Source: a virus. Taken from it: 64,000 nucleotides of DNA. The position numbers and the translations under genes were made by a program. The notes under the pieces were generated by a model. It was not told where the DNA came from, did not search any database, and saw only the letters and a program-made list of their open reading frames with translations. The DNA is taken from the IMG/VR virus record IMGVR_UViG_3300028706_000004, one strand, 5' to 3'. Numbering within the stretch: the stretch's first letter is position 1; the number at the start of each line of letters is the position of its first letter. Below, in pieces: positions 15,711 to 42,641 of the stretch.

Positions 15711-18700
15711 ATGCCAAACGAACTGCTTGATGACATTCAATTTAAAGCCCGAAACGGCGCTCAGATCAGTGTTGACAATGCCCAAGGGATTGTCGAATGT
15801 TTTGTTTCTGGCATAGGCAACAAAGACAGTGTTGGCGACATCGTTCTTCCCGGCGCCTTCAATGAGAGCCTAAAAAGAAGAAAGCCCAGAGTGGTTTGGG
15901 GACATAGCTGGAACGACCCCATTGGAAAAGTTTTAGAGATCTACGAAGTCGCTAACTCGGACCCACGACTTCCAGAAAAAATGAAGAGTGCTGGAATCGG
16001 CGGTTTGTTTGCAAAAGTCCAGTTCAATCTGGGTGCAGAAAAAGGGCGAGAGGCATTCGCTAACGTCGCCTTCTTCGGAGAAGAACAGGAATGGTCAATC
16101 GGCTATAAGACCCTTCAAGCCACTTTCGATCCGGTCAAGCAGGCCAACTTGCTCAAAGAGGTTGAACTTTATGAAGTAAGCCCTGTGCTGCATGGTGCCA
16201 ACCAACTGACAGGCACGATTTCTGTCAAGGACGGAGAATACGGTGCCTGTGGAATTGGTGGTTGTGAATGTGGGACAAAGAACCACATTGCTTCAGAACC
16301 AGATATTCAGGCAGAAGAAGAGGAAGCTTTCATTTTCGAAAAGGGTCAGATGATGGGACGAGTTCCCATGCAAATGATCGTTATTCCAATGCCTAAGAAA
16401 CCAGATAGCGATTCCCACCACGCCGATAGAGACATTTGGTCTCGTGGTGAGGCTGGTCCCATTGACATGGAAGCTCGCATGGAACTGGCTCAAGAAATTC
16501 ACTCACGAACAAAGGTACCGATCAAGATCGTTGAGGCCACCGAGAACATGGTGGTGTTCCTCCGCAAGATGGTGGATGGGACTAACCGCATGTATCGAAT
16601 GGGATACCACAAGGCCAGCGACGGCAGATACATGTTTGGCAAACCAGCACGAGTTAAACCACAAACGGTTTATTCCCCGGTTCAACCGAACATGCCGCCC
16701 ATCGGCCCAATGAGCCATAAGCCGAATCATCATGTCAGCCCAATTCAGGGAAAAGAAACAACAGAAGAAGCTAAATCTGATTATCTTATTTCCTGCACAT
16801 TGGACAACATGTTTGAGTTCAAAGACATGCTTCAACCAATTTTCGATTATTACAGAGTCACAGTGACCCCTAGTGTCGATGGGCTGTTGTGTAGTGATTA
16901 TCCGTCCGGATTTGAGGACGCAGCAGATACGGCTGTGAAGGCCCTAGGTGGAAGACTGGGGCGAGGTGGTGGCTTGGGAAAAGGCCGTAGGGCTGGGAGA
17001 GCCCTCACCGCAGCGTTCGACCCAAAAGCTTGGGATGGTGATGGCGACGGAATAGTTCAAGAAGGTACGCCTTTCCAGCGTCCATCTATTCCCGGTATCA
17101 ACACAAACTGGCCCGGCGAACCAAAAACCAGAATCAAACCCCCTGATTACCCAGATGACAGTGCCCACGTCAGAGAGGCACGGAAGCCTCGTCGTAATCC
17201 GAATCGAACTCGTCCGGGTAAACGAACTGTCCAGAATCGCAGGGTGGAGCGTGCCGCTGGCATGCGCTCAGAGACTAGGGACCATCGCCTCACGCCGACG
17301 CTCAGAGAGGGAGATTTTCAGATCAGTGAAACCCTCTTGATGCACACTGATACTGAACTAAACAAACGCCCGATACTTCTTGTCGAATTAGCTGACGGAA
17401 CTACCCAGCCGTTCTATATGCGTTCCGGTACAGGTGACGTTCTTCGAGATGCCGACGCTCTCGAATCGGGTGAAGGTGGTAGCCACGGCAATTGGGTTCC
17501 ATTTGACGGTTTTGGCCTCGGGCGAAGAACGGAGTGGTTTAGAAAAGAGAAATACGCTGATTCGGAAGGACCAACTGGTCCCGGAGAGCCTTTGCATCGG
17601 TATGGAAACGAAGAGCTCAAAAAGGTGGGCGAGACGTTAGATGCATCAGAGAATGTGCAAGAGATGCTCAAAGACCGTTCTCGACAAATACCCATGTATC
17701 ACGGTGGGGCTGATGAGCCAGAGGGCTATGTGCCCGGCGACGACTCCACGTTGAAGTACGCAAGAAGTGATGACCTCAACGAAATGTTGGGCCTGCCCTC
17801 ACATGAAGAATATACGAACGAAGTATTTAGCCAGATTGCTGAAGATGAACGAGCGGGCAGTGTGCGATCCAACACTTATAAATATGGTACTCGCAAACCT
17901 ACCGGGCCGAGAGAGGGAACGCCGATACGCGGGGGCCGAGGAGCTACTGCACGCACTGGAGCAGGTCCAGCCGCAGTAAATCCGCGAGGACCCGGTACCC
18001 GAACAGAAAATATTGAATGGGACGCACTGAAGGCGCAGCTTCCATCACAAGCTATTAGAAATATGTCGGTTAAGGAACGTAAAGACCGAATTGAAGATCT
18101 GGATAAAAAACTAGATGTTCTAGAGGCCCAGATGGACGAGGTGGGACGATTCGACGCTGAATATGCTGAGATGAAACAACGTTTCATGCAGTTGGATTCA
18201 GAACGAAGAAAGCATTTGATTTCTGCGGCAATTCATAGTTGGGAAGGTGGACGTAAAAGTTTTGTTCGTTTGCCCGTCGAATCTAAGGGTGTTGAACTTG
18301 AGCTAACGCCAGATGAGATCGATTCACTTCGTTCCCATATAAAAGCACTGATTGGCAAAAGCAAAGACAGCAAAGTAAATGGTGTTTTAGCAAAATATGA
18401 TCAGAAACTTGCTGCCAACAAAGATGGGGTAGTAAAAATCCCTAGAGGGCAATATCACGACTTCACCCATGCGTGGGAGAAAGTTTCGCCGCCTACCCAA
18501 AGTCGAATGCATCCCAAAACAGGTCGCGACATACTCGAATTCGCTGCACTTTCACCAACCCAAAAATTTAGGTCGTCGCAACTCGACCTGCCAGACAATA
18601 AATACAGAGGATTCGGGAATAAGAGAATCAACAATGGTGCTCATCCTGACATAACTCCAGCCAATCAGGCAAAAATGATGGAAGCTATAGGTGCTCCAGA

Positions 18701-20846
18701 GGGTGAACGTCGGGGTCTTTATTTGCCCGGTCGCGACTATTTGATGTTCGCAGACTTAAAAGAACACGGCTCTGCTTCACCCCGACGGTGGGCAATCATG
18801 GAAGGCCAATACACACACGCCACCAAACAGGGGCGTTCGCGAGTAGATCTGCCCCAACTCGCTGGTGAGCCGGTTGTCGAAACGTTAAGGGGTGCCCGTA
18901 GGGCCGACATGGGTGGACCCAATATGAGTAGAGGTGGCCGCACGAGAAGACAATCTCGCAGTGGATCTCAGTCACTTCGAGCTTTCCCGGGGGATACCGA
19001 CGCCCTATTTGACGAACCTACCGGCGAGGACATCATTCCTGATATCAGAGATGTGAGGCCAGAGGATCGGGCGGATATCGACCGCTGGAACGCAATGGAT
19101 GATGCTGCGCTTAGTCGTCTAGGACAACGTCGAGTTGAGAGAATCGCACGACGTTCCGAAGCTCGTCGCGAGGCAGGTCAAGCGGCGGAGCGGCGACAGT
19201 CGAATGATCTTTTGTCCCGATGGGATGAAGCAACCACTGGCACCAGTCTCGACCCTGCGCGTCGTGGCTTGAGGTCGGAGCAGAAAATCCCACAAAGGGC
19301 AACTGCCGACGAAGCTAAACCAGAGACTCGCGGTCGCCCCATGGGGCATGTAATGGAAGATTCACAAGAACGCTTTAAAGGTAAGAAGTTTGAAGAAGTT
19401 AAGCCCGACGATTGGGACGATTTGAGTACTGAAGATAAGTTCGCTCTCCTCAGTGCGGAAATGACTCCAAGTAAGAGCGGGATGAGGCAAATTGACTATG
19501 ACCGTATCTACAATGAATTAGACAAGATTATAGAAAAAAGAGAGCTTCGCAGAGACCGTTCAGAGGGTCGCTTTGAAACGATAGCGGAGCGACGCGCTCG
19601 AAGAGGCGGAGTCATACTCCCAGCTAGTGTTCGCAAGCGTGAAACCGAAGATAGAGAGCCCCAACGAACAACGGCACAAACAGCTAAAACAGAACGTAAA
19701 AAAGTTCTTAATAACTTAGAGTCATCGTTTGCTAATGCTGACAGTAGAGCGACCAACAGTGGGGATGTAGTTCGAAGTGAACACGCAGACATTTGGTCTG
19801 AAGCTTTAGACATAGTTTCAGGGTCGGATGATTTGACCCATTCCCAATTGCGTGCTCTTGATGGATTGTTCGAGAGTTATCTCAGCAGAGAGTCTGGCGA
19901 ACTGTCGCCGGTTGAAGGCGAATTGCGTGCTGCCGCGCTAAGTCGTAAGAGTCATATTGAAGATCTTCTTTCCGACTATGAGGGTGATCGATTTATTTCC
20001 GAAGGAGACACCCCTCAAATTCGAACTCTGGGTGGGGGTAGCGACGACCTAGACATTATGGAACTCAACAACCTCGAACTATTTTCTCCAAGCGGTTTAC
20101 GATCCATTCGACAAAACAGCAGCAAGCTGTCGGGTACATCAACGCGAGAGTATGTAGATGCCAGACGACGACAAGGTTTGCGTTCGCAAGCTCATACATC
20201 CAGAGAAGAAAAGATCGGAGATCTTCGCAACCTTTGGAGTAACGCGCGAGCAACTGGTGACAAAGAAGAAATGGATCGTCTGGAACGCCAATTGCGAGAG
20301 CTTGGAGCTAAACCCAGTAGAGGCAATCCTCGACCACAGTATTCAGCTCCATCACGCAGACTCAACCTCAACCAAAATAATGAAACCAGTACGGGCAACC
20401 GAGGCATGCGATCAGAGCGCGAAGGTCGTGCTCAGATTACGGGCGAAGCCACATGGTTTAAAAAAATCGAAGATTCTCTTCAAAAAGAAATCGATATGGC
20501 TTCACGAGACAAAGATCAGCAAACAGCTGATGCCCTCCGAACCTTGAAACGAACATTGGCTCGTCAAGAATCGGGTAAAACCGGCGACAAGCGCACTAAC
20601 GCTGGTTCGTTGACTGTCACACAGACAGAGATTGACGAGATGCTCGATGCTTTAATGCATGTTTTGGATCGTCAAACTGCGGAAAAGGGGTCTCGAACAG
20701 AGATGTTTGCGGAATTGATTGAAAAGCTTTCTTCTGCAGCTATTTCGACTTTCATATTGAAAGAAACAGAAGCAATTCAAAGCAGAACACGGAAAGCCAC
20801 GAACGAAGCAGGTCGTACAGTCGACATCCCAAATACGGATTTATAA
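15711..20846 (+). CDS. HK97-type prohead protease fused to a ~1540-aa multi-module extension
   Basis: Residues 1-173: GNKDS.GD....GAF, WGH (His), EWSIGY (Ser), LYEVSPV..GAN; GGAGGT RBS; 1711 aa. Confidence 0.9.
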   Translation: MPNELLDDIQFKARNGAQISVDNAQGIVECFVSGIGNKDSVGDIVLPGAFNESLKRRKPRVVWGHSWNDPIGKVLEIYEVANSDPRLPEKMKSAGIGGLFAKVQFNLGAEKGREAFANVAFFGEEQEWSIGYKTLQATFDPVKQANLLKEVELYEVSPVLHGANQLTGTISVKDGEYGACGIGGCECGTKNHIASEPDIQAEEEEAFIFEKGQMMGRVPMQMIVIPMPKKPDSDSHHADRDIWSRGEAGPIDMEARMELAQEIHSRTKVPIKIVEATENMVVFLRKMVDGTNRMYRMGYHKASDGRYMFGKPARVKPQTVYSPVQPNMPPIGPMSHKPNHHVSPIQGKETTEEAKSDYLISCTLDNMFEFKDMLQPIFDYYRVTVTPSVDGLLCSDYPSGFEDAADTAVKALGGRLGRGGGLGKGRRAGRALTAAFDPKAWDGDGDGIVQEGTPFQRPSIPGINTNWPGEPKTRIKPPDYPDDSAHVREARKPRRNPNRTRPGKRTVQNRRVERAAGMRSETRDHRLTPTLREGDFQISETLLMHTDTELNKRPILLVELADGTTQPFYMRSGTGDVLRDADALESGEGGSHGNWVPFDGFGLGRRTEWFRKEKYADSEGPTGPGEPLHRYGNEELKKVGETLDASENVQEMLKDRSRQIPMYHGGADEPEGYVPGDDSTLKYARSDDLNEMLGLPSHEEYTNEVFSQIAEDERAGSVRSNTYKYGTRKPTGPREGTPIRGGRGATARTGAGPAAVNPRGPGTRTENIEWDALKAQLPSQAIRNMSVKERKDRIEDLDKKLDVLEAQMDEVGRFDAEYAEMKQRFMQLDSERRKHLISAAIHSWEGGRKSFVRLPVESKGVELELTPDEIDSLRSHIKALIGKSKDSKVNGVLAKYDQKLAANKDGVVKIPRGQYHDFTHAWEKVSPPTQSRMHPKTGRDILEFAALSPTQKFRSSQLDLPDNKYRGFGNKRINNGAHPDITPANQAKMMEAIGAPEGERRGLYLPGRDYLMFADLKEHGSASPRRWAIMEGQYTHATKQGRSRVDLPQLAGEPVVETLRGARRADMGGPNMSRGGRTRRQSRSGSQSLRAFPGDTDALFDEPTGEDIIPDIRDVRPEDRADIDRWNAMDDAALSRLGQRRVERIARRSEARREAGQAAERRQSNDLLSRWDEATTGTSLDPARRGLRSEQKIPQRATADEAKPETRGRPMGHVMEDSQERFKGKKFEEVKPDDWDDLSTEDKFALLSAEMTPSKSGMRQIDYDRIYNELDKIIEKRELRRDRSEGRFETIAERRARRGGVILPASVRKRETEDREPQRTTAQTAKTERKKVLNNLESSFANADSRATNSGDVVRSEHADIWSEALDIVSGSDDLTHSQLRALDGLFESYLSRESGELSPVEGELRAAALSRKSHIEDLLSDYEGDRFISEGDTPQIRTLGGGSDDLDIMELNNLELFSPSGLRSIRQNSSKLSGTSTREYVDARRRQGLRSQAHTSREEKIGDLRNLWSNARATGDKEEMDRLERQLRELGAKPSRGNPRPQYSAPSRRLNLNQNNETSTGNRGMRSEREGRAQITGEATWFKKIEDSLQKEIDMASRDKDQQTADALRTLKRTLARQESGKTGDKRTNAGSLTVTQTEIDEMLDALMHVLDRQTAEKGSRTEMFAELIEKLSSAAISTFILKETEAIQSRTRKATNEAGRTVDIPNTDL

Positions 20847-20890
20847 GATGATGTCTACTAATACTAATAAGACGCAAGAGGTAGGATACA

Positions 20891-22708
20891 ATGTCTAATA
20901 GCGGTCTCCGAGGCAAACAATCGAAGTACCAATGCATGTTGAGCGGCGAAAAGGTCGCAAAGCCATGTGTCGGCTGCATCAACCCTAAGGGGTGTCTGTC
21001 CAGAGCCATGCAGTACAAGGAGCCTCAACAAATGGGTCTGGAAGAAGAAAACGTAGTCAAGCTGAACACCGATGGTACAGCGCTTACATGTTCTAAGGGC
21101 TACAGTACTACTGATTGCGAGTATACTGCAGGTAGTAAGATGTGCGGTAAGTGTGGCGCATCAGCGGTCGAACTGAAAGAGAGTCCAATGGAACAAGCCA
21201 TCGTTAATGATGAAACTCTGGACGACGAGGACGCAGTGCTGATCAAGGCACTTGAAGAAAAAGCCAGCGTCATGGACGAGGTCTCCGAGGTTGAAGCCGA
21301 AAAGCGTCGTATTGAAAAAGACACTCGCGATAACTCTGATACCCAATTAGAGGATGACGATGACGACCCGGATCACGACGAGCACGAAGCTACAGAGGCT
21401 AAATCTGAAGATGATGTAGAAGAAAAGACCGAAGATGAGTCAATCGATGAAAAGGTTGATAACGAACCAATTTCTGAAGACGAGCCGATCGTAGAAAAAA
21501 CTGAAGATGACGGTTGGGTCGGCCTAGAGGAAGAAAAGGACGAAAAAGCTGGCGTTATGATGCGCGAAAGCCGCCTAAACGTCGACGATGAGGAAGAAGA
21601 GGAAGAGGATGCCGAAGAGGAAGAGGCTCCTGCTGCTGCTGCTCCTCCTCCTGCTGCTCCTGCTGCCGATCCTGCCGCCGCTGCTCCAGCCGCTCCCGTA
21701 GAGGAAGCCCCTCCGGCTCCCGCTGCCGAAGAGGAAGAAGTTCCCCCAGCCCCAGCTCTTGCTGAGGAAGAGGAGGAGGAAGAAGATGAAGAATACGAAG
21801 AGTCCTCAGCTAAGAAATCTGTCGGTGCATATTTGTGTGCCCTCGACCGAAAGGTCTACCCCGGCAACGCCTCTGTTTGCGACGACTGCCCGGGCGGCTG
21901 CGTCTCTGAAAAGGGCATGCCCAGCTTGCTCGAAGTTGAACAAGCTCTTGAAGTCCAATTCAAGGGCGCAGAGTACGCAACGGTAATTGATTCTGTTTAT
22001 TCAGATCGCGCAGATCTCTTTATCTGCGATCTTGATGTTGACGGCAAAAAGGTTATCGAAGTATTCGTTGAAGCTAAGTCTGGAGAGGTTCTCGGCTTTA
22101 GCCGCCTCGACGATTCTGTCTTTGAACAAAAAGATGCTTTCGAAACAGTTGACCTTGTTGACTTCAGCGAGGCTGCCGAAATCGCGGTTAAGACAATCGA
22201 AGGTGTAGTCAACGCCGTAGAGCCGGATGTATTCGAATCTTTCGACTGCTACGCGATAGAAATTAATGGCGTAGATGGCAAGTCACATGATGTGTTCGTT
22301 GCTCTTGACGGTGAAGTTTTGGGTTATGACACATACGAGCCGGACGAGGCAGAGGCCATCGAGGCCGAAGCTGCTGAAATCGCCCTTAAGCGTGCGTTCT
22401 CAGACGATGAGCGCGACGATTTGGCCGATCAGGGTCACGCCATGAAGGATGGTTCATATCCGATTGTGTCGGAAGAAGATCTCCGTAATGCGGTTCAGGC
22501 TTATGGTCGGGCAAGTAACAAACCAGCAACAAAAGCTCACATTATGAAGCGAGCTAAAGATCTTGGTCTGGAAGAACTTATTCCGACCAACTGGGTTGCT
22601 GGTAGTGACGAAAAAGCGATCCTGAGTGCAGATGATGCAGAATTCATGGCTTCTCTGATCGAATTTGAATTACTCGCGGAGGAAACCAATAACAACGGTC
22701 CCATTTAG
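20891..22708 (+). CDS. Acidic scaffold-like protein: Cys knuckles, Glu/Ala/Pro tract, two PepSY-like domains, C-terminal YPI...HI..RA..LG domain
   Basis: Very Glu/Asp-rich; FSEAAEIAVK...YAIEI...HDVFVALDGEVLG PepSY pattern. Confidence 0.75.
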   Translation: MSNSGLRGKQSKYQCMLSGEKVAKPCVGCINPKGCLSRAMQYKEPQQMGLEEENVVKLNTDGTALTCSKGYSTTDCEYTAGSKMCGKCGASAVELKESPMEQAIVNDETLDDEDAVLIKALEEKASVMDEVSEVEAEKRRIEKDTRDNSDTQLEDDDDDPDHDEHEATEAKSEDDVEEKTEDESIDEKVDNEPISEDEPIVEKTEDDGWVGLEEEKDEKAGVMMRESRLNVDDEEEEEEDAEEEEAPAAAAPPPAAPAADPAAAAPAAPVEEAPPAPAAEEEEVPPAPALAEEEEEEEDEEYEESSAKKSVGAYLCALDRKVYPGNASVCDDCPGGCVSEKGMPSLLEVEQALEVQFKGAEYATVIDSVYSDRADLFICDLDVDGKKVIEVFVEAKSGEVLGFSRLDDSVFEQKDAFETVDLVDFSEAAEIAVKTIEGVVNAVEPDVFESFDCYAIEINGVDGKSHDVFVALDGEVLGYDTYEPDEAEAIEAEAAEIALKRAFSDDERDDLADQGHAMKDGSYPIVSEEDLRNAVQAYGRASNKPATKAHIMKRAKDLGLEELIPTNWVAGSDEKAILSADDAEFMASLIEFELLAEETNNNGPI

Positions 22709-22732
22709 GGGCTCCCCGAAAGGTGGGTCCGA

Positions 22733-25700
22733 ATGACCGAGTTCTCTCCAAAAAAAAGAACCTACCTCTCAGCAAGAATTCGCCGTAGTCGGCGAGATTT
22801 AGAAGCTGCTGGGCTGGACTTTCTTGAACGCAGAAACATTCTTGCTGCACAGCCAACCCTTAACGCCCAAATTGTAGTTAAGGCGCTTGATGGCAGCATC
22901 GGAGATTCCCCTGAACAGGAAAAAGATAAGTCCAAAAAACGCACAGCCGGTTCAGGAGTTAAAGAAATAGAGCCCGAGGTTCGTTACGACCCCAAGGGTG
23001 TTCGTGATCCCGGACAAGTTTTCAAACTGCATGTCACTGCTCGTGACCTCAAAACAGGTCAAGATAATTTCGGGTGGATTGATCCGCCTAAAGCAGTGCC
23101 GAAAGAAGAACAGCGCTCCAATATGGCTGACGCTATGCAGTGGCGAGCAACCCGACCTCAGATTCGGATACGGACTTACGATCAGGACCCAAGAACGGGT
23201 CAACCAATCATTGAGACTGAGGAAGAAATTAAGGTCAAAGGTCTCGGCAGAACCCTCAAAGACACCCTTCCGGGCCAAAGCCTTGGGGGACGTGCCGCCA
23301 GCGGCCTTGGTCTCATTGTTGACGCTTTAGGGAAGTTTCGTTGCCCCCCCGGTACCCCAGCAGCCAACCAGTTCACCGACGAGTTCGGCACAAACTGTTT
23401 TTCACCTGTGGAGGTATTACGCGACACAGTCCGGGGTCTTGTCAATAGTCTCAGATCCGGTAGAGGTCGAAGCTGGTCATTACCCGGTCGAGGCGACAGC
23501 GAAGCGGAACAGCTGAGATCCAATATCGCAGAACGGCGCGCAACCGCAGGTAAGGCCGGACAGCTTATTGGTAATACTGCATCGATTGAAGCAGCCTTGA
23601 TTGAACGCAACACCGTTATTCAATCTTTAATGGATCAGTACGGCATCTCGGCTGGAGACGAACTAAACGAGGATATGTGGTCATTGTTGGAAGCGATGAC
23701 CGACGTAGATACCGGTGATTTCCCTGATCTGGAATGGAAGGGATTGTTCACCGGCATGTTCGGAGAAGAACTCTGGGACGACAATCTTACGATGCGTCAA
23801 AATTTGGAAAAGATGCGTGCGACAGTACGCGAAGACGTATTCAGTTTCATGGGTGCACAAACCAAAACGGGCGCACAAGCAATCCGGGATGCGTATAGAG
23901 CCAAAGACCCCACTGCGATGGAAATGGTTGACGGTCTTGTTGGTCGACACGAATCAGCGATGCGAGGCTTCTTAGGTTCGACTCTTCACGAGTTCGGAGA
24001 CGATCCGAGAGCCATGAGCGGTCTCAAAAAGATTTCTTTCCGAGCCTACAACCCAGATTATGACGACTTCCAAAGCTATTGGGGTACCGAAGGGGAATGC
24101 ATTCCCCTCTGGGAAGGTACCGGCACCGGAATGGCTACCAAACTCGAATTCAACGCTACTGCCATTGCCCTGCGACCGTTTCAAGAGGGTGGACTAACTC
24201 ATGAGGGTCCAGATGGTCGACCGAAACTCGTACAGGTTGACGCTGGAGGTACCTTTTCAGCATCAGTAACAGACGCCGAGAAATGGGCGGCAATCGCAGA
24301 CTTTCTTACACATACTGAAAAAATGGAATACTGGCATAAACAATATGCAAATGACCTTACTGCTGCTGCTCACGGCGGAAGTCTCGAAGCCTTTTCCATG
24401 CATGTCGGATACCACGAACTTGCGCACGTTAAACAGTATCAACAGATTGCACAACGTGTGTTGGAAGCTTATGAGCGTGATGGTCAATTCTCGATTTACA
24501 AAAGGGATGGCACTGGACTCGAATCATTAACTGCACATCCTTCTGAATGGACAAACGAACAGTTCGTTATGGCCGTTGTCTCCACATTCCAAGATGCGCT
24601 TCCACCCGGCACCACTACCGACTTTCCCCCGATGGACATGGTCCAATTTGAGGGAAGCATGCTGCATCTTCTCGCAGGACAATATTACCAAGACATGGTT
24701 CAAGGTTTCCTGCAAGCAACCTCTGGTGGTTATGCAGAAGATATTACTCCGGGTCAATATGTGAGTCCTTTGGACGCCAGAGGACTACCTGTTCACAATT
24801 CGGCGAAAGCCCACCTCAACCTGTTGTTTCTAGAGGGAACAGCTGAACTAGCGGCTCTTAAACGAACCGGAGGCATCGCAGGCGACGAACTCAATGAAGT
24901 TCTTGATTGGATGGACGCAGACATAGCAGACGTTGTCTACGGGATTCCAGAGGTTGACGTTCCGTTTAAACCCGGTTCCATTGTTCCCGACACTGACATG
25001 GGTGAAGCGCCTTGGGACACTCCTCTCGAACCGGGCGAAGTTATGACGCCATCAGGCATCATCATTCCAACTAGTGCTGTGAAAAAGATAGAAGCAGCAG
25101 CGGCGAGGAAGAGGCAAGAACGCCAACTAACTACGGAGAAGCGAAAGCTCGAAACTGCTAGACGATTGCGGCATCGAACAGAAATACACAGTTGGGGCAG
25201 CGGCGGGGACGGTGAAATCAAAACTGCGTCCGATGGAACAAAATATGTTTGGATCGGAGCATTAAGTGGTGAGGGCGAATGGCAGGTGCTAATTGACGAC
25301 CTGTTCGACCCAGCAGTTTTGGTGGAGCTCATCGACAACGATATTTTGCCAGCCGTCGGCCCGTTTGAAGCATGGAATGGACAGTGGTTGGGCGGCGCTG
25401 AGGGCGGTATGCGCTCTAGGCGAGAATTGGGCCAATTCGACAACGGACCCAGAGTCGGAAAGTTTTCCGGAGAAACACACGAAGAACCAGACGGCTCAGT
25501 CTGGGAGTTTCGCCCTACTCTTCGGGATCGTCCAGAAAAAGGTGGTTTCTGGCGTGATATGACAGACCCTGCAAACCGACGAGAAATAGCCGAACGCGCC
25601 ACACGCAGACGCCAATTGGAGGCTCAAGAGGGTCGAAGCATGGGACGACTTGCTCGCCCGGGGGCTGGAAGCGAATGGGAAAACATTGTCCGGAGGGGCG

Positions 25701-29338: not shown

Positions 29339-32300
29339 TGAAAGCTATACACGTTGCCAATACGGGCGATAGTCGAATTTATTATCTATTGGAATCAGAT
29401 AACGACTCTACCGGTGTAGTGGTCAAACCCGATTCTCCTCCAACATTCGTCAACTTTTTTGCATACGTCTCTAAAAAACCGCGCATACAGCGTCTTATGG
29501 ATTCAGATTTTCATAAATTTCTTTGGACCGGCAACAAGGGAAGTCTAAAACCTCGCTGGGAACACGTCTTTATTGACCGAGTTGCCGAACCGGCTGATTT
29601 ATTGGTTGGCGTAAATGTGATTAGCAAGTTTAAAACAGACGACGGGCCTAGTCGTGTCCGACAAATGGAAGAGAAGGCCAACCGAGCTATCGAATATCGA
29701 TCGCTGATATCCGCAGGGCTCAACGAAAAAGCTTTTGCGAGAAGTGTCGGCAGGATGGCTGGTCGTGCAGCTACGGGAGCCGTCAGAGGTTTCCGTAGAG
29801 GAATTCGGTTTGACAGAAATGCTCATGACGGTGATTTGGATGGCTTTATTCAGGAAGGTACCCAGTGGGCTAGAGCTGCTACGCCGTCAGTACGAACGAA
29901 TCTAACTCCGGATGGTCTTAGGTCAACAAACCAACTACCACGGAAACGGTTCATGAAAGATGAGCCGCCAAATCCCACAACCTTGTTTGACGCTTCACCA
30001 CAAGACCTCTATGTAGCCAAGAATCGTTATTACAGCTGGAAGAAAACAGAAGCAGCCTTGTCTGCCCACCTCACAGGCAACGACCCTGAAGAGCTCTTGC
30101 AAAGTTGGATCGATTTAGAAAATGAATTGAGTGAAGCCTTTCTTGACGGGCGTCCCATACGAACCACTGACGATTTTCGAGAAATTGCAGCTCAACTTCA
30201 CAGCGGATTCGGACCCGGCCTCAATCAAAGAATGACAATTCGTTACAATCAGAATGGTGACCCAATAGGGCGTAAATATGACAATCCGGGGGGCAGCTAT
30301 TTCGACTTGATCACCCCCGATCGGCAAGGCGACGAAGAGTTTTCTCTGTATGAAAAATATACGGCATTAACTGTAATGAGGAATTTAAGAGATAACCCTG
30401 ATCTTCAAAACCACACCTTGGAAATTGCACATGAGGACAATCGAACCCCCGGCAATCCAGTCATTCAAGGACCGCCTGCTATTGCGGGTCAAGCGTCCAG
30501 CAAGCAAGGAAAGAAGTGGAAGGTCAACAAAATAGCTCTACAACTATTGAGAGCTACCACGGGTACACGGGAAGAACGAAACAAACGGTTCTCAGAACGC
30601 CTTGACGAAATGTTCGAAATTGATACAACGCCATCTCGTCACACAAAACCAAGAATCACTATCGGCTTACGCAAAGAAAAAGATCATCCGCAACTACTTG
30701 ACTTTGAGCTCGGCTTAGATGCTGAAGAGAGTTCAAAATGGGGTCACAACACCGCCACTACTGCTCTGATTGCCCTAGCAGCTCACCTTGACGATGTGCC
30801 CGAAGGTGAACAGGCAGCAGTTATCAAACAAGGTAAAGCAATATTTGGAGCCACGATTGCAACACATGAATTCTCTGGACATGGAAGTCATACTGCAAAT
30901 ATTAAATCATTTGCAGACAAAGATTCAGGTGGTGAAGAAAACGCATTAAAACGAGCATATGAACGAATAAAAGATCGTATAGCAAAAAACCCCATCGCTG
31001 ACAAAACCGCGCTAGATCTGGATAGCGAACATATAGATAAAACCAGCACTGGTGGTTATGCCTTGGCCCATGGAGCATATGGCCCAAGGGTGATTCTCGC
31101 CGTGGATAGAGCTGCTGCAGATTTATCAAACCACGGCGATATCCGAGGTGTTCTAAGTGTCGACCCTGACACTATGGGGGTCGGGCAATGGATGCGTTAT
31201 CTCGACATTATGGAAAAGACGGGTTCCAATAGGGCTCAGCGGCTTATTGAATGGATGGGACAACCCATCATGGATGGTGACGGCAACGCATACACAGCCA
31301 CTCCCGGACTCGCCCAGTATTTCAACGCATTAGCAGGTGAGGCTGCCCTTATTTGGCTAGACGTTGACCTAACCATCTCCCCGGGTGAAGAATTAACTCT
31401 TGCACATGTTTTGTACGGGATGTCTCCCAGCTTCTATTTCGGAAAATACCAATTGCTTTCCAGCGAATCCGCTGCCCATGGTGTCACCACATTGACAGAT
31501 CATCGAAAGGGTAAATATCTCAGCTACAAGCCAAGAGACGGAACTGCTACTGGAGAGAACTGGATCAGGGTTGATGACAAAGCACTATTTATACTCGACG
31601 ACGACAATGACATAGGACCGTTAGACGCCGTACCGGATAACGTGTTGGCTCAGGGTGGCTGGTATAAACGTGACAACGGTATCGAGCTACTCGACCAAGG
31701 AGTTTTACCCGCACCTACGGTACTTAGGGAAAGCGGAATACCCGGGTTCAAGTTTCGCGCCACGGACGACAACGCAAGCGTTATACGCGAGTCGGCACGA
31801 GTGTCGCCAGAAGATGTTGCACCGTTACTCGATGCTCATGCAGTAGTTAATCGTATTTTGGCTGATGAAAAATCTTCCATTCCGGTTGCCCCACGTCCTG
31901 TCACCAATGTACAAACTGCTTTCAAAGATCCATTCAACCCTACAGACCTAGAAAGACGTGCTGAAAGAAAGCGATTGAATGATGAAGAAGTAAAAAGGAG
32001 TCAAAACTATTTGGCCAAGCTTCTTAAAGTAAGATTTAATAAAATCAAAGAGTCGAAAAGCGAAGTTAGTTCAACAGGACTACCGGTTACTGAATTCGTT
32101 TCAAGTAAAAGCCCTGAACAGAGAGTCGAACTAAGACAAAAATTAGTTGACCAACTACTTGCTTCTCTCGTCTATGACCACAAGTTCATTGATAGAAGTC
32201 GAATCAATCAAACCCAGAGTTTCGGTGACCCTAGGGGGCAACGTGGCATAGATGTCATGGGAGACCATCGCCTCTTTGAAGAGGGTGGAGCACTCGAAGG

Positions 32301-33744: not shown

Positions 33745-33746
33745 AT

Positions 33747-35687
33747 ATGGCGACTTCCTACACCTACACGAAGGAATTGGGCTGCTGCGACGGTTTAGAA
33801 GTGCAGGTCAAACGAACAATTTTACGAAAGCTTGACGACACCATTCCTTCGGGTCTAATCCGACATGCACGCGCATCTGACGAAACTATTGGCGAATATA
33901 AAGCTTTATCTCATAGAAATGGGAATACTCGCCAGTACGACATCAGCGTAACTACCAAAGCGGGCTTAGTTGGATCAGGTTCTCGTCTTGGACAAGCAGC
34001 TCAGGCTGCGGGTTCAATCATCACACCCGGAAACATTTCCAGAGTTCGAAGTCCCTTACGTTCCGCCGGATGGCGGGCAATCACTCCCGGTCTCCCCGGA
34101 GGTGGACGAGGCATTCGCAAACGTGGACGAGCACACCGATGCCCAGAGGGCTACCAATACGGTGGTCGGTTTACTGATAATCAACTATCCACTTGCGGAC
34201 AACAACTTTTCGATATCCCATCTGCTATCGGTGCAACCATTGCCGCCATTCGTAGGGCCGCTGCTGGTGCACCCGCAGGACCCGAAGGTGAAGTAATTCG
34301 TGGACGCTCAGGCCAAGACGTTCTAAAAAGCCGTAGGCCAGATATTCCCCGCGTCGGCAACGACGACCGCCAAGAACGCATTCGTGCTACTGGAAAAATC
34401 ATAGAAGCCATGGGTAAGCCCGACATAAACACGGCTCGGCTCGTCCGTCGAGATGGGTTCCAGTTGGAGCCGGTCGTCAGTCCTGCCGTCCTTAGAACCA
34501 TCCCAGACAACAGGGATATGGAAGGCGCCACCTACTTAATGAATCTCACATCCGTTGATGGAATGGGCGGCGAAGAGTTGGGTCTCCTGTCCAATACGGG
34601 AGTTACTAATATCTCTTACGTTCTTCCTGACGGATCTTCTCTTTCTATTGAAAAGGTTCGAGGGCTCACTGTCGGTGAACGTAGAAAACTGGGCCGCACG
34701 GTTAATGCCGCCATGAAGAAAGACAATTCTAAAGATCCTGCGGCCAGACTAAAATTTGTCGACGAGGAGACGGGAACAGGTATCGCATACACGGAGGACT
34801 GGAAAGGATCAGCTCGTTCCGTTGCGGATGCCCTCAAATCCAAGCCAGACAAAACACCCACAGTGGAAGCTGAAGTTCCTGAAGCTGAAGTGCCCGAAGG
34901 TGTTGGCGACAAAATTGGTAACGTCGATGACGCTGTAACCCACATCAATGGTGGGGGCAGTCTTGCTGAAATTGATCCATCTATTTTGCAGGCTGCGATG
35001 CGAAAAGCGGGTACGAAACGACCCGGAGGCATCTTTGAAGTCGGCGATAATCGTTACCTTATGCAGTCTTCGAAAACCGATTTCGACCATTTACACGTTG
35101 CTACGGCAGCAGAAATCCAAAATCATCTAGGTTTGGCAGCGTTCCCCCCAGCGTTTACGGGGAAGGGTGGCAAGCGGCGTGGCTACGTTCTCGCTGCCCC
35201 ATCTATGGATACTGATCGGACATTCGATGATGTAGATCCAGAAGACGCAGTACGCATGCTCTTATCTGACTTAATTCTCGGAGTCAACGATAGACCGCCC
35301 ACTGCCGTAGGGAAACTAGGCGAAGCAACAGTGCCGACACATATACCGTCTGCACTCAAAGATTTGGACGACATCAGCATACAAGAAAGAATCGAAGAAA
35401 GCATTTCTTCGATGAAACCACTTTCGAATGAAAGCATATATTCTTCGCATTACCAACAATTACGAGAAGCCCAACAGGAAGCATTTCGCAACGAACTAGA
35501 ACGCCTCCTTGAAAGAGCTCGTACATTCAATTTTACTGATTACAAGGATCGCCTTTACCGCGACGGTGCTTTATCTGCAGCCGAAAAAACTCACCTAAAT
35601 ATTATTCAAACAATTGTTGAAGCTCGTATCCAGACACTTGCTGCTGCCTACAACGCGATTCTCGCCCGCTTGGACGGTTCCCAATGA
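33747..35687 (+). CDS. Head-module protein with RCPxG..FTD..C motif and degenerate HipA/PI3K-like kinase C-terminus
   Basis: Start reassigned to MATSY; ...AEI..HLGL..P...DLILGVNDR... Confidence 0.75.
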   Translation: MATSYTYTKELGCCDGLEVQVKRTILRKLDDTIPSGLIRHARASDETIGEYKALSHRNGNTRQYDISVTTKAGLVGSGSRLGQAAQAAGSIITPGNISRVRSPLRSAGWRAITPGLPGGGRGIRKRGRAHRCPEGYQYGGRFTDNQLSTCGQQLFDIPSAIGATIAAIRRAAAGAPAGPEGEVIRGRSGQDVLKSRRPDIPRVGNDDRQERIRATGKIIEAMGKPDINTARLVRRDGFQLEPVVSPAVLRTIPDNRDMEGATYLMNLTSVDGMGGEELGLLSNTGVTNISYVLPDGSSLSIEKVRGLTVGERRKLGRTVNAAMKKDNSKDPAARLKFVDEETGTGIAYTEDWKGSARSVADALKSKPDKTPTVEAEVPEAEVPEGVGDKIGNVDDAVTHINGGGSLAEIDPSILQAAMRKAGTKRPGGIFEVGDNRYLMQSSKTDFDHLHVATAAEIQNHLGLAAFPPAFTGKGGKRRGYVLAAPSMDTDRTFDDVDPEDAVRMLLSDLILGVNDRPPTAVGKLGEATVPTHIPSALKDLDDISIQERIEESISSMKPLSNESIYSSHYQQLREAQQEAFRNELERLLERARTFNFTDYKDRLYRDGALSAAEKTHLNIIQTIVEARIQTLAAAYNAILARLDGSQ

Positions 35688-38600
35688 GACAGTTCGCTAT
35701 TATCAAAGACGTTAGTTCGGATAAACTTTTTGCAATTATTGTTAAAGATGATGATTTTACTGTCTGTCATGGTGTCCATGCTGCCGGTAAAAAGTGGGCT
35801 GAAAGTTACAACAAGGGTTTAACCAAATCCATTTATGACGATCTTCAGCCGGGAATTTCCGTTGGATCGTTCGCGCCCGTAAGAGCGACAACACAAGCTT
35901 TGATTGATGAGGCAACCGAAGGGAAGCCCGTTCGTTTTCCTGATCACTCACAGCTTGTATATGTCAAGTCAGTTAACTACAGATATGCCGGAGAGATTCC
36001 GCAAGTAAAAGATGCTGGGCTATCAAATCTGACAGATAAAGATTTCTTTATTGGAGCAGACTATAAGGGATCAGCTTTTCGTGCCGATTCTGCAAGACTT
36101 TCACTTTTAGCCAAAGCACGCTTAGGACATTTCGGAGCCGATTCTAAAGGTTTTAATTTCACCGAAAAAGGAACAGATCAGAAGGCCCTAAACGAAGAAT
36201 TATTTCAAACTGCTCGGGGGTCCGGGAATGCACGTCGTGCAGCTAAAGCAGTACTTTTAGAGAAACATTTAAACCTAGAAGAACATCCGGGGTATCTCGG
36301 AACAAAAGAACATTCGTCATCTATCCGTACAAAAGCTAACCGTCTTGGTCGCAGACTCGCCCCGGGAGGCGGCGGAGGCAGGGGTCGCGGAGGTATTCGC
36401 AAAATCGGACGGTCAATGAAAGACCCGTTTGATCCAAACGCTTGGGACGGAGATAATGATGGGATAGTTCAGGAGGGCACCGTATGGGAACGTCCCTCAA
36501 TACCGGGCGTTAACACAAATCTTCCGGGCCAACGTCATACCCGAACCAAGCCTCGTAGCTTCCCACGCGATGACGCGGACGGTGTCGAATTTAGATTGCG
36601 CAATCGTCGTGAAGAGAACCGTGCCCAAGACGAGATTTTAAGTACTCCGGTTGGAGAGGTTATTGAAGATTTCCCCGAAGCAACCGAAGCTCTCAGAAAC
36701 ACACTTTCAGGATTCTCTGAAGATGATGACATTTGGGAAACCCCACTAAGGGATATCACGGATGATGGAGAATATTTTGGTGAAGATGATTTAGATCGAC
36801 TTCTTGATATTGCTGTACCGCGACGCCGAGAAGGCACTACTGACAGCTTCTATCGCGATGAACAAGGTATGCGTTCTCAGCGTCTACAGCCCGGGGACAA
36901 GGTCACCGTTCGCCACAGGGGCGAGGACACTGAGGGAACTATCGTCCGATTGGGGCAAGGCGGAGCGAGCGGCGTAGGCACTGACTCCTATGTAGTTGAT
37001 GTCGGTGAGCGGCAATCACTATGGAAACGCTCAGACGAGATTCTGGGCAGCCCGGGCGGCATGCCCTCTCAACGAGGCATGCGTTCTGAGCGATATGACA
37101 TCACACGAGATGAAGCTGGCAAATGGCGTGTCATTGATACGGGCAACAGAAACATGCGGCTTCCCGAAGAATATGACAACCGTGAGGAAGCTTTAAGAGA
37201 AGCGATACGAAGAGATAACCCTCGTGGCGGCATGCGCTCCCAGCGTCGCCCATATGCAGGAACGATTCCAGACCGGTCAGGCGAAACTCGACAAGAACGA
37301 GAGAATCGCAGAATGCGAGGCGAGTTCGACGAAATGACCCGAGTCGGGCGAGCCGCCAGAGAAACCCATGAAGAGCCAGACGGTTCAATCTATGAATTCC
37401 GTCCAACTCTTCACGACAAACCTGAACGGGGTGGCAATTGGATTGACATTACAGACCCCGGCCAAAGATCTGAAATGGCTAGGCGTGCTACGGAAAGGCG
37501 CCAACACGAAGCCCAAACGGGTACGAGCATGGGGCGGTTAGCGCGACCGGGTGCTGGTAGTGAATGGGATCGAATTACAAGGGGTGGAATGCGCTCTAGG
37601 GCGCGCGACGCTTCAGTAGATCGTGCCTCTCAATTGCAGGGCATGCGGTCAAGTCGCAGACGACGCCGAGGTCAAGCTGAACCCGGACTTGATCGTCACT
37701 CAGACATTGATGGTCAGATTTGGGAAAACCTTACCGATGCTGAAAGAGCGCATGTCGGAACGGCGATTGACACAGAAATGCGTAGACGAATGCACGGACT
37801 CGCATGGAATGACATGAACGGCATAGATCCTCGCAAGCCAAAACAAAAAAAGCGTTCAGAAATGACCCCCGAAGAAGAAATGGAAGCAACCTTCCACGTC
37901 AACCCCCTCGGAGGGATCGTAAAACAGTATTTCGATCAAGCAATCAGACCAGACTTTGAAAAAGACTATGAAGGTGACGAGCTTGCCCAAAAACTTAGGG
38001 ACTATATTTTCACCGACGCCGATATCGACACCATCGAAGCCGCGATAGAAAGTCAAATCGAAGCGACTGGCGACGCGACCGACAAGGCTGCCGACCAGCT
38101 CAAGGACCAGTTAAGGGAAATTCGAATCTACCGAAACATGGTCGAACAAAGCAACAACGGCAAAGACCCTGACGCCTTCCGATTCCTTGAGCATCTTACG
38201 CCGACACAGCGTGCCCGAATCTACAACCGTGCAAACGGTGCTGATAAAGATCGTCTAGAAACAAGTAAAGCTTCTTGGGGTCTCAGTAAAGGCAATCGCA
38301 TCAATTCGACTATCGGCAGCACGTTCACGGAACGTCAAGCCGCTATTGATGCTGTTGAGCCCGGCGTTAGGCGCCGTGCGGGAGAGTTCTCCCGATCAAT
38401 GGCACAACGTATTTGGGCTCCAAACCCGAACAATGCCTATCGTCGTGCGCTTAGAAAAGCTCGACGCGGAGGGGCGGGAAGTTCTCTTCCCGGTTTCCGT
38501 CGTGAAGAGGATAAAAGATCAATAGTTGCCCGCCGTGTCGCTCAACTGCGACGCAAGTTGCGGGTCGTTAAGGGTCGTAAAGGTATCCAAGGTGCAATTA

Positions 38601-39897: not shown

Positions 39898-39899
39898 CG

Positions 39900-42641
39900 A
39901 TGCCCGAGGCACGCACGGACTCCGAAACTGCCAAGAAAGCGCAGGCTCTAAGAGAGGCTGCTGAACTCGGCTGTACCGGTGCGCACCGTCATCCCGATGG
40001 AACATGGATGGCGTGCAGCACCATGGAAGAATACGAGCGCCTCACCAACGGCGAAAAAGAAAAAAGCGCTTTAGATGTCGTTGAAGAAACTCAGAAGATC
40101 CGTTCCCAAAAGGGTCGCAAACGCAAGAAGAAAACTAAGCGCCAATGGGACAAATTGAGAGAACGGGGTGTCACTGGAATTGACACTCTGTCTGGTGGCG
40201 GACTCGTATCCGGCAAGGGTATGACTTTTCGACCTGTAGACGGTGACACGGACGTTTTCGACAACATCAACCAAGCGCGTCGTAGAGCACGCCAATTGGG
40301 ATGTATCGGTGTATCTAGACGTATATCCCGTAGCGGACGTAGGGTTTGGACCCCGTGCACCAACATGACGGACTATGCACGAGCCACTGGCAGTACAGCT
40401 CTTGGAAGGCGCTACCAGCAAAGACTGGAACGTCAACGAATACGAAACATTGTTCGTGACGAGCTATCTAAAATGAAACGACGTAAAAAGCGTCTATTCG
40501 AAGAAGTGTACGAAGTTAAAGGTATTGGTCGCCGTATCGGACGTACCGCACGGTTTGACCCAAAGGCTTGGGATGGCGACAACGACGGGATAGTTCAAGA
40601 GGGCACCCCATACGCACGCCCTGCCATCCCCGGGCTTAACACCAACCTCCCCGGGAAAAAAAGAGGTGTGCGTTCCGTTTGGGATGGGAAACCCGGCACG
40701 CTGAAACGTCCAGAACCTAAAGCAAAGCCAGAACCCGTAACCGACGAAGTCAGAATGGCGTCTCTTAGCAAGGAAATTGACAAGTTGCGAACGGAGAAAC
40801 TCGACCCTCTCCTTCAACAACTCAAGAAAGCCCAAAAGGAAGGTAGTCACGCTGACGTTGCTCGCATTAGGGGCATGATGGCGCCACTTCAACAGGAAGA
40901 ATCGCGTCTTCGTGAAGAACTCGGTACCGCCATGGGTAAAAGCAGATCGGCTCTATCGTTAGGAGCTTCTGCAAATGGTGGCATACGTTCTCGACGGCAA
41001 ATCGATCATATGCTTCAGACCCCTGAGCAAAATATTGAAGATATGGGAGCTGACATAGATGAGTATTTCGCTTTCTTAGATGAACATAATCGAATTGATT
41101 TTCATAGATATTCCATTCATCGACCTAACGATAGGCGAATTCGGCAAGTAGGAGAACCGTCAACAGACGAATATGCGAGTGGAGACGAGTTCGCAGATTT
41201 ACCCGAAATAGATCAAAACATTATCGAAGAGCATGACGAGCTTTGGAGTCAGGTCGAGTGGTGGGCAGACTTTATTGAAAATTCAGGGATTGAACGCAAC
41301 GACTTAACAACTGAACTCAGGGAAAAAGAAGATGAGCTCGATAGCGCAACGGAAAGCGCTTCAAGGCCATATCACGCAGACACTAGAAATTTCTTAGCGG
41401 CTATCGACGGCGACGAAGATAGGGATACCTTTATTGAGCGTGAATACGGTCCCTTCGAAACCAACGAAGCAGATCTGCCATACGGTGGCAGTAGTGAACC
41501 TGAGTGGCGTGAAGATCAATGGGGAAGGGATACCTTCAACGAATACACCGGCTACTGGGATGATTTGATTCGGATACGAGAAGAAACTTCAGATATACAA
41601 CGTGAAATAGACTTCATTCAGGATCAGATTAGTAAATACCACGGGAACGGCACTGAATCCGCCAGAGACAATTATCGCGAAGCCCTAGAAGCCAAGTTGG
41701 CTCAAAGGGCCAACGCAGACGCAATCAGGGGCGAGCTCGCTGAAGGGCGAATTGCCCTCGACCCCGGTCAGGGTCTGCGTTCGCGTAGAGATCGTTTAAG
41801 CCCTAGTGAAAAAGAGTGGCTTAAGATACTTCAAGATAATCCCGGTCTTTGGGCTGAAGCCCCAGCAAGTGTGCGAGCGGTTGCTTCAGACAAGATGAAA
41901 CGTGAAGCACTCCAGATACGCAATGATTTTTCAGGTGGGATGCGAAGCGGACGCTTTGGTAGCGGCGGAAAAGCAATGGGCCAACGAATACTTGCCAAGG
42001 TCAAGCCAGAACACAGAGACAAGGAAGATAGAACCCTTTACTTCATTGGTGGTACAACGGGTTCCGGTAAGTCCACTTTGATTAGCAATGGCTCCATAAG
42101 TGTTCCAAACGACACTGAAGCTGCCCACATAGATCCGGATTTCATCAAAACGGGCCTAGAGGGCTGGGACCCCAAAAACGCTATGGCATTCCACGGAGCA
42201 TCCGTTACAGCGACTCGCGGCGTTCTGGATAGTGCCATCAACGCCAAGATGGATGCTGTAGTGCAGGGCACGGGGAAACGAGCCGAACACCTCCGTACTG
42301 CTAGATCGCGCGGTTATTCGACTGTTGGTCATTTTGTTCATGTCCCCGGCGATGTAGCAAATAAGAGGATCGCCCAACGAAAAGCAGCTGGTGGGCCTGA
42401 TATCCCAACCGGTTTTGGTACCCAAATCGCTGGAGAACTAAGAGGCCATGTAAGTAGACAAATAACAGAAGGCCTATATGACGAGTTCTTCCTGTGGGAG
42501 AACACTGGAGATGCGCCAAGACTGATAGCGTTCAGAAATAGAGATGGGCATTTCGAAATCAATAGCAAAACTGAGTTCGATGCCTTCTTCGGTGACATCG
42601 GTGCAAAGTATGTAGAAAGGTATTGGAAAGATAACCAATGA
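39900..42641 (+). CDS. Polyvalent protein: two DUF3721-like Cys motifs, DGDxDG motif, C-terminal zeta toxin-like P-loop kinase
   Basis: 913 aa; GGTTGSGKST, HIDPDFIK, VVQGT, RIAQR...GG..IP. Confidence 0.85.
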   Translation: MPEARTDSETAKKAQALREAAELGCTGAHRHPDGTWMACSTMEEYERLTNGEKEKSALDVVEETQKIRSQKGRKRKKKTKRQWDKLRERGVTGIDTLSGGGLVSGKGMTFRPVDGDTDVFDNINQARRRARQLGCIGVSRRISRSGRRVWTPCTNMTDYARATGSTALGRRYQQRLERQRIRNIVRDELSKMKRRKKRLFEEVYEVKGIGRRIGRTARFDPKAWDGDNDGIVQEGTPYARPAIPGLNTNLPGKKRGVRSVWDGKPGTLKRPEPKAKPEPVTDEVRMASLSKEIDKLRTEKLDPLLQQLKKAQKEGSHADVARIRGMMAPLQQEESRLREELGTAMGKSRSALSLGASANGGIRSRRQIDHMLQTPEQNIEDMGADIDEYFAFLDEHNRIDFHRYSIHRPNDRRIRQVGEPSTDEYASGDEFADLPEIDQNIIEEHDELWSQVEWWADFIENSGIERNDLTTELREKEDELDSATESASRPYHADTRNFLAAIDGDEDRDTFIEREYGPFETNEADLPYGGSSEPEWREDQWGRDTFNEYTGYWDDLIRIREETSDIQREIDFIQDQISKYHGNGTESARDNYREALEAKLAQRANADAIRGELAEGRIALDPGQGLRSRRDRLSPSEKEWLKILQDNPGLWAEAPASVRAVASDKMKREALQIRNDFSGGMRSGRFGSGGKAMGQRILAKVKPEHRDKEDRTLYFIGGTTGSGKSTLISNGSISVPNDTEAAHIDPDFIKTGLEGWDPKNAMAFHGASVTATRGVLDSAINAKMDAVVQGTGKRAEHLRTARSRGYSTVGHFVHVPGDVANKRIAQRKAAGGPDIPTGFGTQIAGELRGHVSRQITEGLYDEFFLWENTGDAPRLIAFRNRDGHFEINSKTEFDAFFGDIGAKYVERYWKDNQ

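Follow-up and report, generated by a model that had tools for sequence, protein, structure and literature searches.

The IMG/VR virus record IMGVR_UViG_3300028706_000004 is a single contig of 91,339 bp with 50% G+C, and a 64-kb stretch of it (hereafter the window) encodes a short peptide built around a DxDxDG loop, here called the tag, that recurs in proteins of the phage head module. We found that the tag is the core of a longer module of ~55 residues, in which it is preceded by a lysine site and a basic linker, and, as far as can be judged from sequence, this module marks the start of each cargo unit. Its carriers, read in the same way, are polyvalent multi-effector proteins that a large and mostly uncultured clade of phages encodes in the interval from the portal gene to the capsid gene and that are probably packaged inside the head. 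That the tag would load these proteins into the capsid is plausible. Our preferred interpretation, which we hold tentatively and rate at somewhat less than an even chance, is that the tag is a Ca-loop docking peptide that sits with its basic linker at the N terminus of each mature unit, where it would engage a common partner, in the prohead or in the virion, to bring about incorporation, retention, or both.

Four copies of the tag lie in large proteins of the window (Table 1), at amino acids (aa) 457-490 of a 1732-aa protein (15648-20846), 158-190 of a 1107-aa protein (29338-32661), 249-282 of a 1300-aa protein (35684-39586), and 219-252 of a 913-aa protein (39900-42641). The peptides given in the original prediction for 17016-17117, 29809-29874, 36428-36529, and 40554-40655 agree exactly with the translations, the copy in the 1107-aa protein being the most divergent. 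Its description of the carriers as otherwise unrelated was also borne out: the four large proteins have no BLAST similarity outside the tag, their N-terminal domains show no mutual similarity by BLAST, and the only other piece that BLAST found to be shared within the head module is a cassette common to the 1300-aa protein and a 2201-aa protein. A scan of all six frames by regular expression and profile hidden Markov model (HMM) added a fifth copy, which forms the last 25 residues of a 120-aa open reading frame (ORF) that also has a Lys-rich patch and matches phrog_7924 (PHROG 7924, function unknown). The closest relative (G001, 114 kb) retains all five copies, the small ORF included. In Gordonia phage Gray and Brevibacterium phage Cantare, the sheath gene is preceded by an untagged ORF of ~100 aa that is syntenic with the 120-aa ORF. 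The five tag copies are the only occurrences of the pattern D[GAN]DxDG in the complete 91,339-bp genome, versus 0.05 expected from shuffles, and a 12-residue version of the motif occurs five times versus 0 expected. At the DNA level the copies have diverged at many synonymous sites, so it is the peptide that is under selection, and recent duplication does not account for them.

We determined the extent of the module by aligning the five window copies with 25 metagenomic relatives. It starts with an acidic or hydrophobic residue, any residue, and K, followed by [AGS]-[LI]-G-R-R-[IL]-G; a basic linker rich in Gly and Arg (about 10-28 residues) then leads to the core, [FY]-[DN]-P-[KND]-A-x-D-[GA]-D-x-D-G-x-V-Q-[ED]-G-T-x-[FWY]-x-R-P (in compact form, [FY][DN]P[DN]A-x-DxDxDG-x-VQ[ED]GT-x-[FW]ERP), and a Pro-rich tail (NTNLPG or DRATGG). 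D1, D3, and D5 and the Q, G, T, and R of the core are invariant in this set. The tag is the most conserved 30-aa segment of the 1300-aa and 1107-aa families (0.78 and 0.68, versus means of 0.44 and 0.37), and the least conserved stretch of both lies directly downstream of it. An N-terminal domain plus tag recurs with varying downstream cargo, much as polymorphic toxins join a constant N-terminal part to varying downstream parts.

The original prediction placed a Lys-then-small-residue site and a Gly/Arg-rich stretch ahead of each of the four tags. Both are present (K431-A, K131-A, K217-A, and K207-G), and the lysine site generalizes to other carriers. Of 203 tag copies in the proteins that we collected, 42 lie within 45 aa of the annotated N terminus, one of them confirmed on the stop-to-stop frame, which leaves just 23 codons upstream. 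Among the 161 remaining, internal copies, 128 have K[AGS][LIV] within 45 aa upstream, compared with 16% of random windows from the same proteins. The median distance from lysine to tag is 22 aa, and the logo of the site reads hydrophobic, E, any residue, K, then A/G/S, L/I, G, R, R, I/L, G. K431 itself is invariant in 29 protease fusions. In one relative the S78 protease is unfused and ends in ...LETK, and the next gene (309 aa) opens with the tag (L106:1622-4200), a gene fission that falls precisely where the window's protease fusion has its Lys site. In polyproteins each effector unit has a tag of its own: P0142 consists of four tag plus ART-PolyVal units, and P0144 consists of a portal, a MuF domain, and five units, each opening with K-A-A or K-G-L plus a short tag. 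The S78-type protease of HK97 removes the capsid delta domain, cutting after a lysine, and the N-terminal delta-like region of the capsid protein in the window and its relatives has sites akin to the Lys site (EIK-GLI and EFK-ALANG), both untagged. Together, the invariant lysine, the gene fission, the per-unit tags, the capsid sites, and the habit of the HK97 protease make it plausible that the lysine is a prohead-protease site, in which case the tag would lie at the N terminus of every mature unit. In an AlphaFold2 model of residues 1-500 of the protease fusion, the Lys site lies outside the protease active site.

The right-hand boundary proposed for the tag fared less well. The original prediction set a GxRS cleavage site between tag and cargo, and within the window the first G[MLIV]RS of each of the four proteins does follow the tag, at aa 538, 193 (a GLRS that comes next after the divergent copy), 395, and 256 (GVRS in the 913-aa protein). 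Five of the window's head proteins (15648-42641, plus strand) together contain 20 G[MLIV]RS sites, where about 0.7 would be expected; the portal, acidic, and capsid proteins have none, and conservation of the motif does not extend to more distant relatives. Orthologs of the 1300-aa protein with ~1,000 aa mostly have zero or one G[MLIV]RS, the distance from the tag to the first one ranges in relatives from 1 to more than 140 residues, and in one ortholog a GMRS stands upstream of the tag, between it and the Lys site. Since the site is missing, variable, or misplaced in relatives, the sequence of Lys cut, tag, GxRS cut, and cargo is not a general layout; the GxRS boundary is clade specific, with many orthologs lacking it.

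A profile search of 1.84 billion cluster representatives found the tag in 872 clusters at E<=1e-3 and in 152 at E<=1e-10. No NCBIfam family and no Pfam family, the LPD families included, covers the tag region, and PHROG 7924 alone does so, in the small-protein form only. A scan of prokaryotes with one genome per species (185,579 species) returned the tag at only 10 loci, all on contigs of metagenome-assembled genomes. All 10 contigs carry homologs of head-module genes of the window (portal, protease, terminase, capsid, or the acidic 605-aa, 650-aa, 214-aa, and 104-aa proteins) and are therefore misbinned phage DNA. Almost all tag carriers are phage proteins. IMG/VR yielded 291 confirmed stretches with the tag, and the best 79 of these 291 all have the tagged ORF inside the portal-capsid interval (79/79); the tag recurs in the protease fusion, in the protein encoded after the 650-aa gene, and in the product of the gene that directly precedes the capsid gene. 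A separate lineage has the order terminase, portal fusion, tagged protein with four ART repeats, and capsid gene, and in lineage L010 the capsid gene is immediately preceded by genes for a Zeta-toxin protein with a tag and for a protein with two tags. In the first of these, the portal fusion has 1888 aa and carries 2',5'-RNA-ligase-like and Acb1-like (anti-CBASS nuclease family) domains, and the protein that follows it is built of four tag plus ART-PolyVal repeats (L105:4320-15067). An HMM had been proposed as a check of whether the motif is confined to head modules: matches are nearly confined to phage head modules, with exceptions in neck/tail, lysin-adjacent, and replication regions. A tblastn search of 50,697 GenBank phage records found no match for the 913-aa protein, the tag segments, or the small tagged proteins, a result in which the low-complexity filter may hide the loop.

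The Pfam domains found on 58 plus 7 tagged proteins include Zeta_toxin, DUF3721, Peptidase_S78, ADPrib_exo_Tox, ART-PolyVal, RNase_T, sigma-70 region 4, HTH, UvrD helicase, HipA-like and PI3/4-kinase-like kinases, NUDIX, GNAT, MuF, and intein. Polyvalent proteins have been argued to be carried in phage heads and delivered along with the DNA (Iyer et al. 2017, PMC5512222). The tagged giants resemble them in joining several effector domains of unrelated kinds within a single chain (in the window, a protease, Zeta toxin, and DUF3721), in lying among phage head and packaging genes, and in carrying ART-PolyVal, Zeta-toxin, kinase, helicase, and GNAT domains; a point of difference is calcium, which is mentioned 0 times in the main text of PMC5512222. 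The tagged carrier fused to portal and MuF likewise recalls MuF-anchored effectors. This 3015-aa protein (P0144; L104:9388-18435) also has a GNAT domain; after it comes a polyvalent protein of 3881 aa that has helicase and Zeta-toxin domains. Another tagged polyvalent protein, P0147, which also has a NUDIX domain, contains an intein (Hint plus LAGLIDADG homing endonuclease) at aa 1180-1475.

The suggestion that the tag contains a Ca-binding loop stood insofar as its core is a DxDxDG loop that appears related to the Excalibur domain. As in the DxDxDG class of calcium-binding motifs, reportedly described by Rigden and Galperin in 2004, D1, D3, and D5 are invariant in the alignment and Gly6 nearly so (with Met and Lys variants), and D-to-N variants occur, as they do in EF-hand-type loops. 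The tag departs from the canonical EF hand in having Thr at position 12 and an acidic residue at position 10, with no predicted flanking helices. A true Excalibur protein (P0066) was among the matches of the tag profile, and aligning the tag alignment with its Excalibur repeats by hhalign gave a probability of 92% over 22 columns, the preceding P-x-A-x included. The two share P-x-A-x-DxDxDG-[IV]-V-x-E, and tagged proteins give weak Pfam matches to Excalibur (PF05901; DxDxDGxxCE). Unlike Excalibur, the tag has Gln in place of the Cys of "CE" and lacks the N-terminal Cys-containing half, with no upstream Cys; Excalibur is an extracellular domain of cellular organisms, whereas phages account for nearly all occurrences of the tag. 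The Excalibur gathering threshold (22 bits) was not reached, as the four window tag regions had no Pfam match at E<=0.01 and P0182 scored 15.2 bits. These comparisons suggest that the tag is related to the loop half of Excalibur, as a related loop only, and we infer that it would bind Ca2+. Ca-dependent Asp-Pro self-cleavage of the FrpC type was considered and rejected: D-P is ~90% conserved only in the close family and elsewhere is replaced by DR, DA, NP, KA, or KP or is absent, and the module is far shorter than ~170 aa.

The AlphaFold2 model of the protease fusion, built from 29 sequences, shows a folded protease, a folded middle domain, and a disordered tag, the last with a predicted local distance difference test (pLDDT) score of 35-43; a Gly/Arg linker and a Pro-rich linker lie on either side of the tag. 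The EPYDPDA subfamily, in which the tag is extended by ~40 conserved residues (P0073:556-650), was instead modeled as a compact mini-domain of ~60 residues (pLDDT 92-96). Fold searches with this mini-domain gave nothing significant (Foldseek PDB E>=0.97, VIA-align Z<=3.0, BFVD E>=0.5, ESM Atlas TM<0.5), and a protein Atlas search with the 120-aa ORF gave no match. In these models, therefore, the core behaves as a short linear motif in the window proteins and as part of a small fold elsewhere.

In the mechanism that we propose, the S78 prohead protease would cut after the lysine, leaving the tag about 10-30 residues from the new N terminus of each unit. The DxDxDG loop would bind Ca2+, and the basic linker and Ca-loop would together form a short docking peptide that holds the unit to a partner shared by all units within the prohead or virion. 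Candidate partners are the very acidic, scaffold-like 605-aa protein, which might pair with the basic linker, the delta region of the capsid protein, and the portal. Docking would serve incorporation, retention, or both, and would not be the work of an address excised at GxRS.

Several known systems offer comparisons. The capsid-targeting sequence of T4 lies N-terminal to a prohead-protease site, is removed after loading, and is sufficient to load a reporter. Like it, the tag is a short peptide in the N-terminal region of proteins that would be packed in the head and delivered to the host, and it would be tied to prohead-protease processing; the two have no sequence similarity, the tag is repeated per unit, and its targeting role is putative. 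The original prediction had invoked a cleavable address of the T4 kind, which does not fit the position of the tag: it lies C-terminal to the putative Lys cut and therefore would stay on the cargo. What survives of the capsid-loading idea is a shared signature on head cargo beside a Lys cleavage-type site, and what does not is an excisable, GxRS-bounded address confined to capsid loading. Encapsulins, which are HK97-fold nanocompartments, load cargo through peptides that are usually C-terminal. The resemblance to the tag lies in a short conserved peptide on unrelated cargo beside an HK97-fold shell gene, with flexible linkers and disorder when alone; the encapsulin peptides differ in sequence and position, have no Ca loop, and are not linked to proteolysis. 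Type I dockerins bind cohesin through two tandem EF-hand-like Ca loops, each followed by a helix. The tag resembles them as a putative docking peptide with a Ca-type loop, and their two repeats recall the small tagged proteins with two tags 25-30 residues apart. Unlike dockerins, the tag has no helices after its loops; structural matches were insignificant, tandem copies occur in small proteins only, and no Pfam Dockerin (PF00404) match was found.

A number of observations weigh against docking in the head as the function of the tag. The IMG/VR and species-genome scans used narrow peptide patterns from close relatives and are therefore biased toward head modules. Gray and Cantare, the closest cultured relatives by capsid protein, have no tag; their portal-capsid interval carries effector-like genes (VIP2-like ADP-ribosyltransferase, RNA ligase, lysin B). 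In some copies the loop is degenerate, with its Gly changed to Met or Lys or with Asp residues lost, and in the 2201-aa and 650-aa head proteins the Lys or Gly/Arg lead-in is followed by a Cys motif in place of the tag. Tags also occur outside the expected setting, in small one- or two-tag proteins between neck and tail genes (the 120-aa ORF, P0182 in L022, and P0098 in L021), in P0140, which has two tags and PG_binding_1 directly after an SLT lysin gene, and in tagged orphans of ~3,200 aa and 1,679 aa among replication genes (G002, G003, and L107). Virion presence, Lys cleavage, and Ca2+ binding are all putative here. Finally, one tag per unit, also in the portal fusion, suggests a role after cleavage, as one address would load a whole polyprotein; a purely removable loading address is therefore disfavored.

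Two of these settings are worth describing. At L008/L009:9287-10555, a 184-aa protein with two tandem tags and PG_binding_1 directly follows a gene for an SLT_3 lytic transglycosylase, and the pair is possibly a two-part lysin or a wall-binding virion protein. In two relatives of 118-132 kb, orphan proteins of ~3,200 aa with the Lys site and tag near the N terminus are encoded ~11 kb past the capsid gene (L102:8591-18229 and L103, minus strand, 11691-2356); neither has a Pfam or PDB sequence match.

Other readings of the tag account for some of these observations. It might act after maturation as an N-terminal ejection leader or calcium switch, with the unit docked or compact in the Ca-rich virion and then led through the portal and tail channel, or released and activated in the low-Ca cytoplasm. 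We consider this unlikely. It would explain why every unit has a single tag, invariably close to a real or predicted N terminus and on the cargo side of the Lys site, why it is present even in the portal-fused polyprotein, where loading is automatic, and why small tagged ORFs stand at the neck/tail junction, and it suits the Ca-loop chemistry. It sits poorly with the C-terminal tag of the window's 120-aa ORF and with the untagged fragments that GxRS cleavage would produce in the window; its Ca dependence is deduced from the loop sequence, and we know of no ejection signal of such a kind. A calcium-gated signal, which we regard as improbable, would fold and dock the unit N-terminally to a common receptor near the portal or capsid wall in the Ca-rich virion and would release and unfold in the low-Ca cytoplasm. 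If that were true, the tag would govern the retention, exit order, and activation of injected effectors and would be a portable "pack-and-release" signal for a large group of uncultured phages.

The tag could also be a generic structural element, an Excalibur-like Ca-stabilized mini-domain or linker reused in extracellularly exposed (virion or lysis) proteins with no common partner or addressing. The resemblance to the Excalibur loop, the pairing with PG_binding_1 beside a lysin, and the compact fold modeled for the EPYDPDA form point in that direction; the strongly nonrandom position at unit starts after Lys sites, the near absence from cellular genomes even though Excalibur itself is cellular, and the conservation of the tag as the best-kept segment of otherwise fast-evolving proteins point away from it, and we judge it unlikely. 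Alternatively, Lys site and tag might form one substrate-recognition unit, a prime-side exosite for the S78 protease that aids cleavage between units with no targeting role. Such a role would suit the close coupling of the two, only 4-8 residues apart in some lineages, the tags at unit boundaries of polyproteins, and the protease fusion, whose own junction bears a tag and is the point at which L106 has two separate genes. Against it, copies at true N termini, as counted above, leave nothing to cleave, the capsid protein has similar Lys sites without a tag, and tags stand in tandem in small proteins; we rate this role as distinctly unlikely. That the motif is a functionless product of chance resemblance, or of recent duplication or gene conversion within the genome, has nothing beyond its short length in its favor and is refuted by the excess of copies in the genome, their synonymous differences, and the spread over 872 clusters and several phage lineages; we give it almost no credence. 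The docking peptide is our preferred interpretation.

The genes around the tagged proteins form a head module (Table 1). After the 605-aa protein, plus-strand genes encode proteins of 2201, 1107, 139, 214, 650, 1300, 104, and 913 aa and then the capsid protein; the minus strand carries genes for the large terminase, neck, tail sheath, tail tube, and tail chaperone, and the tail genes identify the phage as a myovirus. The nearest cultured matches of the capsid protein, at 46-48% identity, are Brevibacterium phage Cantare and Gordonia phages of the Bendigovirus group. A WhiB-like ORF (45408-45788, plus strand) was recognized by eye from its Cys pattern and GIWGG motif, and a Pfam WhiB gene occupies the equivalent place in the close relative L004; the host is therefore probably actinobacterial. 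The Cys motif of the 2201-aa and 650-aa proteins has the form RCPxG...FTD...C (23339-23398, plus strand, in the former) and looks like an alternative tag at the equivalent position. The cassette shared by two of the giants spans ~100-130 aa at 59-66% identity, matching aa 518-645 of the 1300-aa protein (37235-37618) with two places in the 2201-aa protein, aa 895-995 (25415-25717) and aa 1505-1632 (27245-27628), all on the plus strand.

Table 1. Tag modules and associated features of the window
Feature	Position	Strand	Remarks
Tag module 1, 1732-aa protease fusion	16938..17117	+	K431-ALG site, Gly/Arg linker, core FDPKAWDGDGDGIVQEGT (17016-17069), tail to NTNWPG
Tag module 2, 1107-aa protein	29728..29907	+	K131-A site, basic linker, core FDRNAHDGDLDGFIQEGT (29809-29862)
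Tag module 3, 1300-aa protein	36332..36529	+	K217-A, Gly/Arg patch, core FDPNAWDGDNDGIVQEGT (36428-36481), tail to NTNLPG
Tag module 4, 913-aa protein	40518..40655	+	K207-GIG, short basic linker, core FDPKAWDGDNDGIVQEGT (40554-40607), tail to NTNLPG
120-aa ORF with fifth tag copy YNPDARDGDGDGLVQDGTEWEREAE	2838..3200 (motif 2915-2841)	-	Between neck genes and tail sheath gene
Portal gene	13612..15612	+	Left border of head module
1732-aa prohead-protease fusion (ORF)	15648-20846	+	First ~200 residues are Peptidase_S78
Peptidase_S78 prohead protease domain (aa 36-197) and folded middle domain (aa ~270-435), up to invariant K431	15648..16940	+	
Very acidic 605-aa protein, scaffold-like	20891..22708	+	Beside protease fusion in relatives also
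2201-aa protein, K169-GLGR site and Gly-rich linker, Cys motif replacing DGD core	23237..23398	+	
650-aa protein, Gly/Arg patch, then same Cys motif	34137..34196	+	
913-aa protein, DUF3721 (N-terminal) and Zeta toxin (C-terminal)	39900-42641	+	
Major capsid protein (HK97 fold)	42864..44198	+	Right border of head module

The ingredients of this system are already known, namely DxDxDG/Excalibur loops, the capsid-targeting peptides of T4 and P1, and polyvalent proteins. We found no description in the literature, Pfam, or NCBIfam of the module itself, its coupling to a lysine, its placement once per unit, or its phage-wide spread, and a literature search on the motif in phages returned no paper on it. 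How internal head proteins are chosen, retained, and delivered is understood in few models only (T4, P1, P22, T7, and phiKZ-like phages). With sequence as its only input, the signature described here predicts the starting point of every cargo unit in a giant polyvalent protein and the Lys site that is probably cut, and it flags effector cargo (toxins, ADP-ribosyltransferases, kinases, and helicases) in uncultured aquatic phages. If the tag is indeed a docking signal, it could be used to load foreign proteins into HK97-fold capsids and would offer a handle on the order and control of protein ejection.

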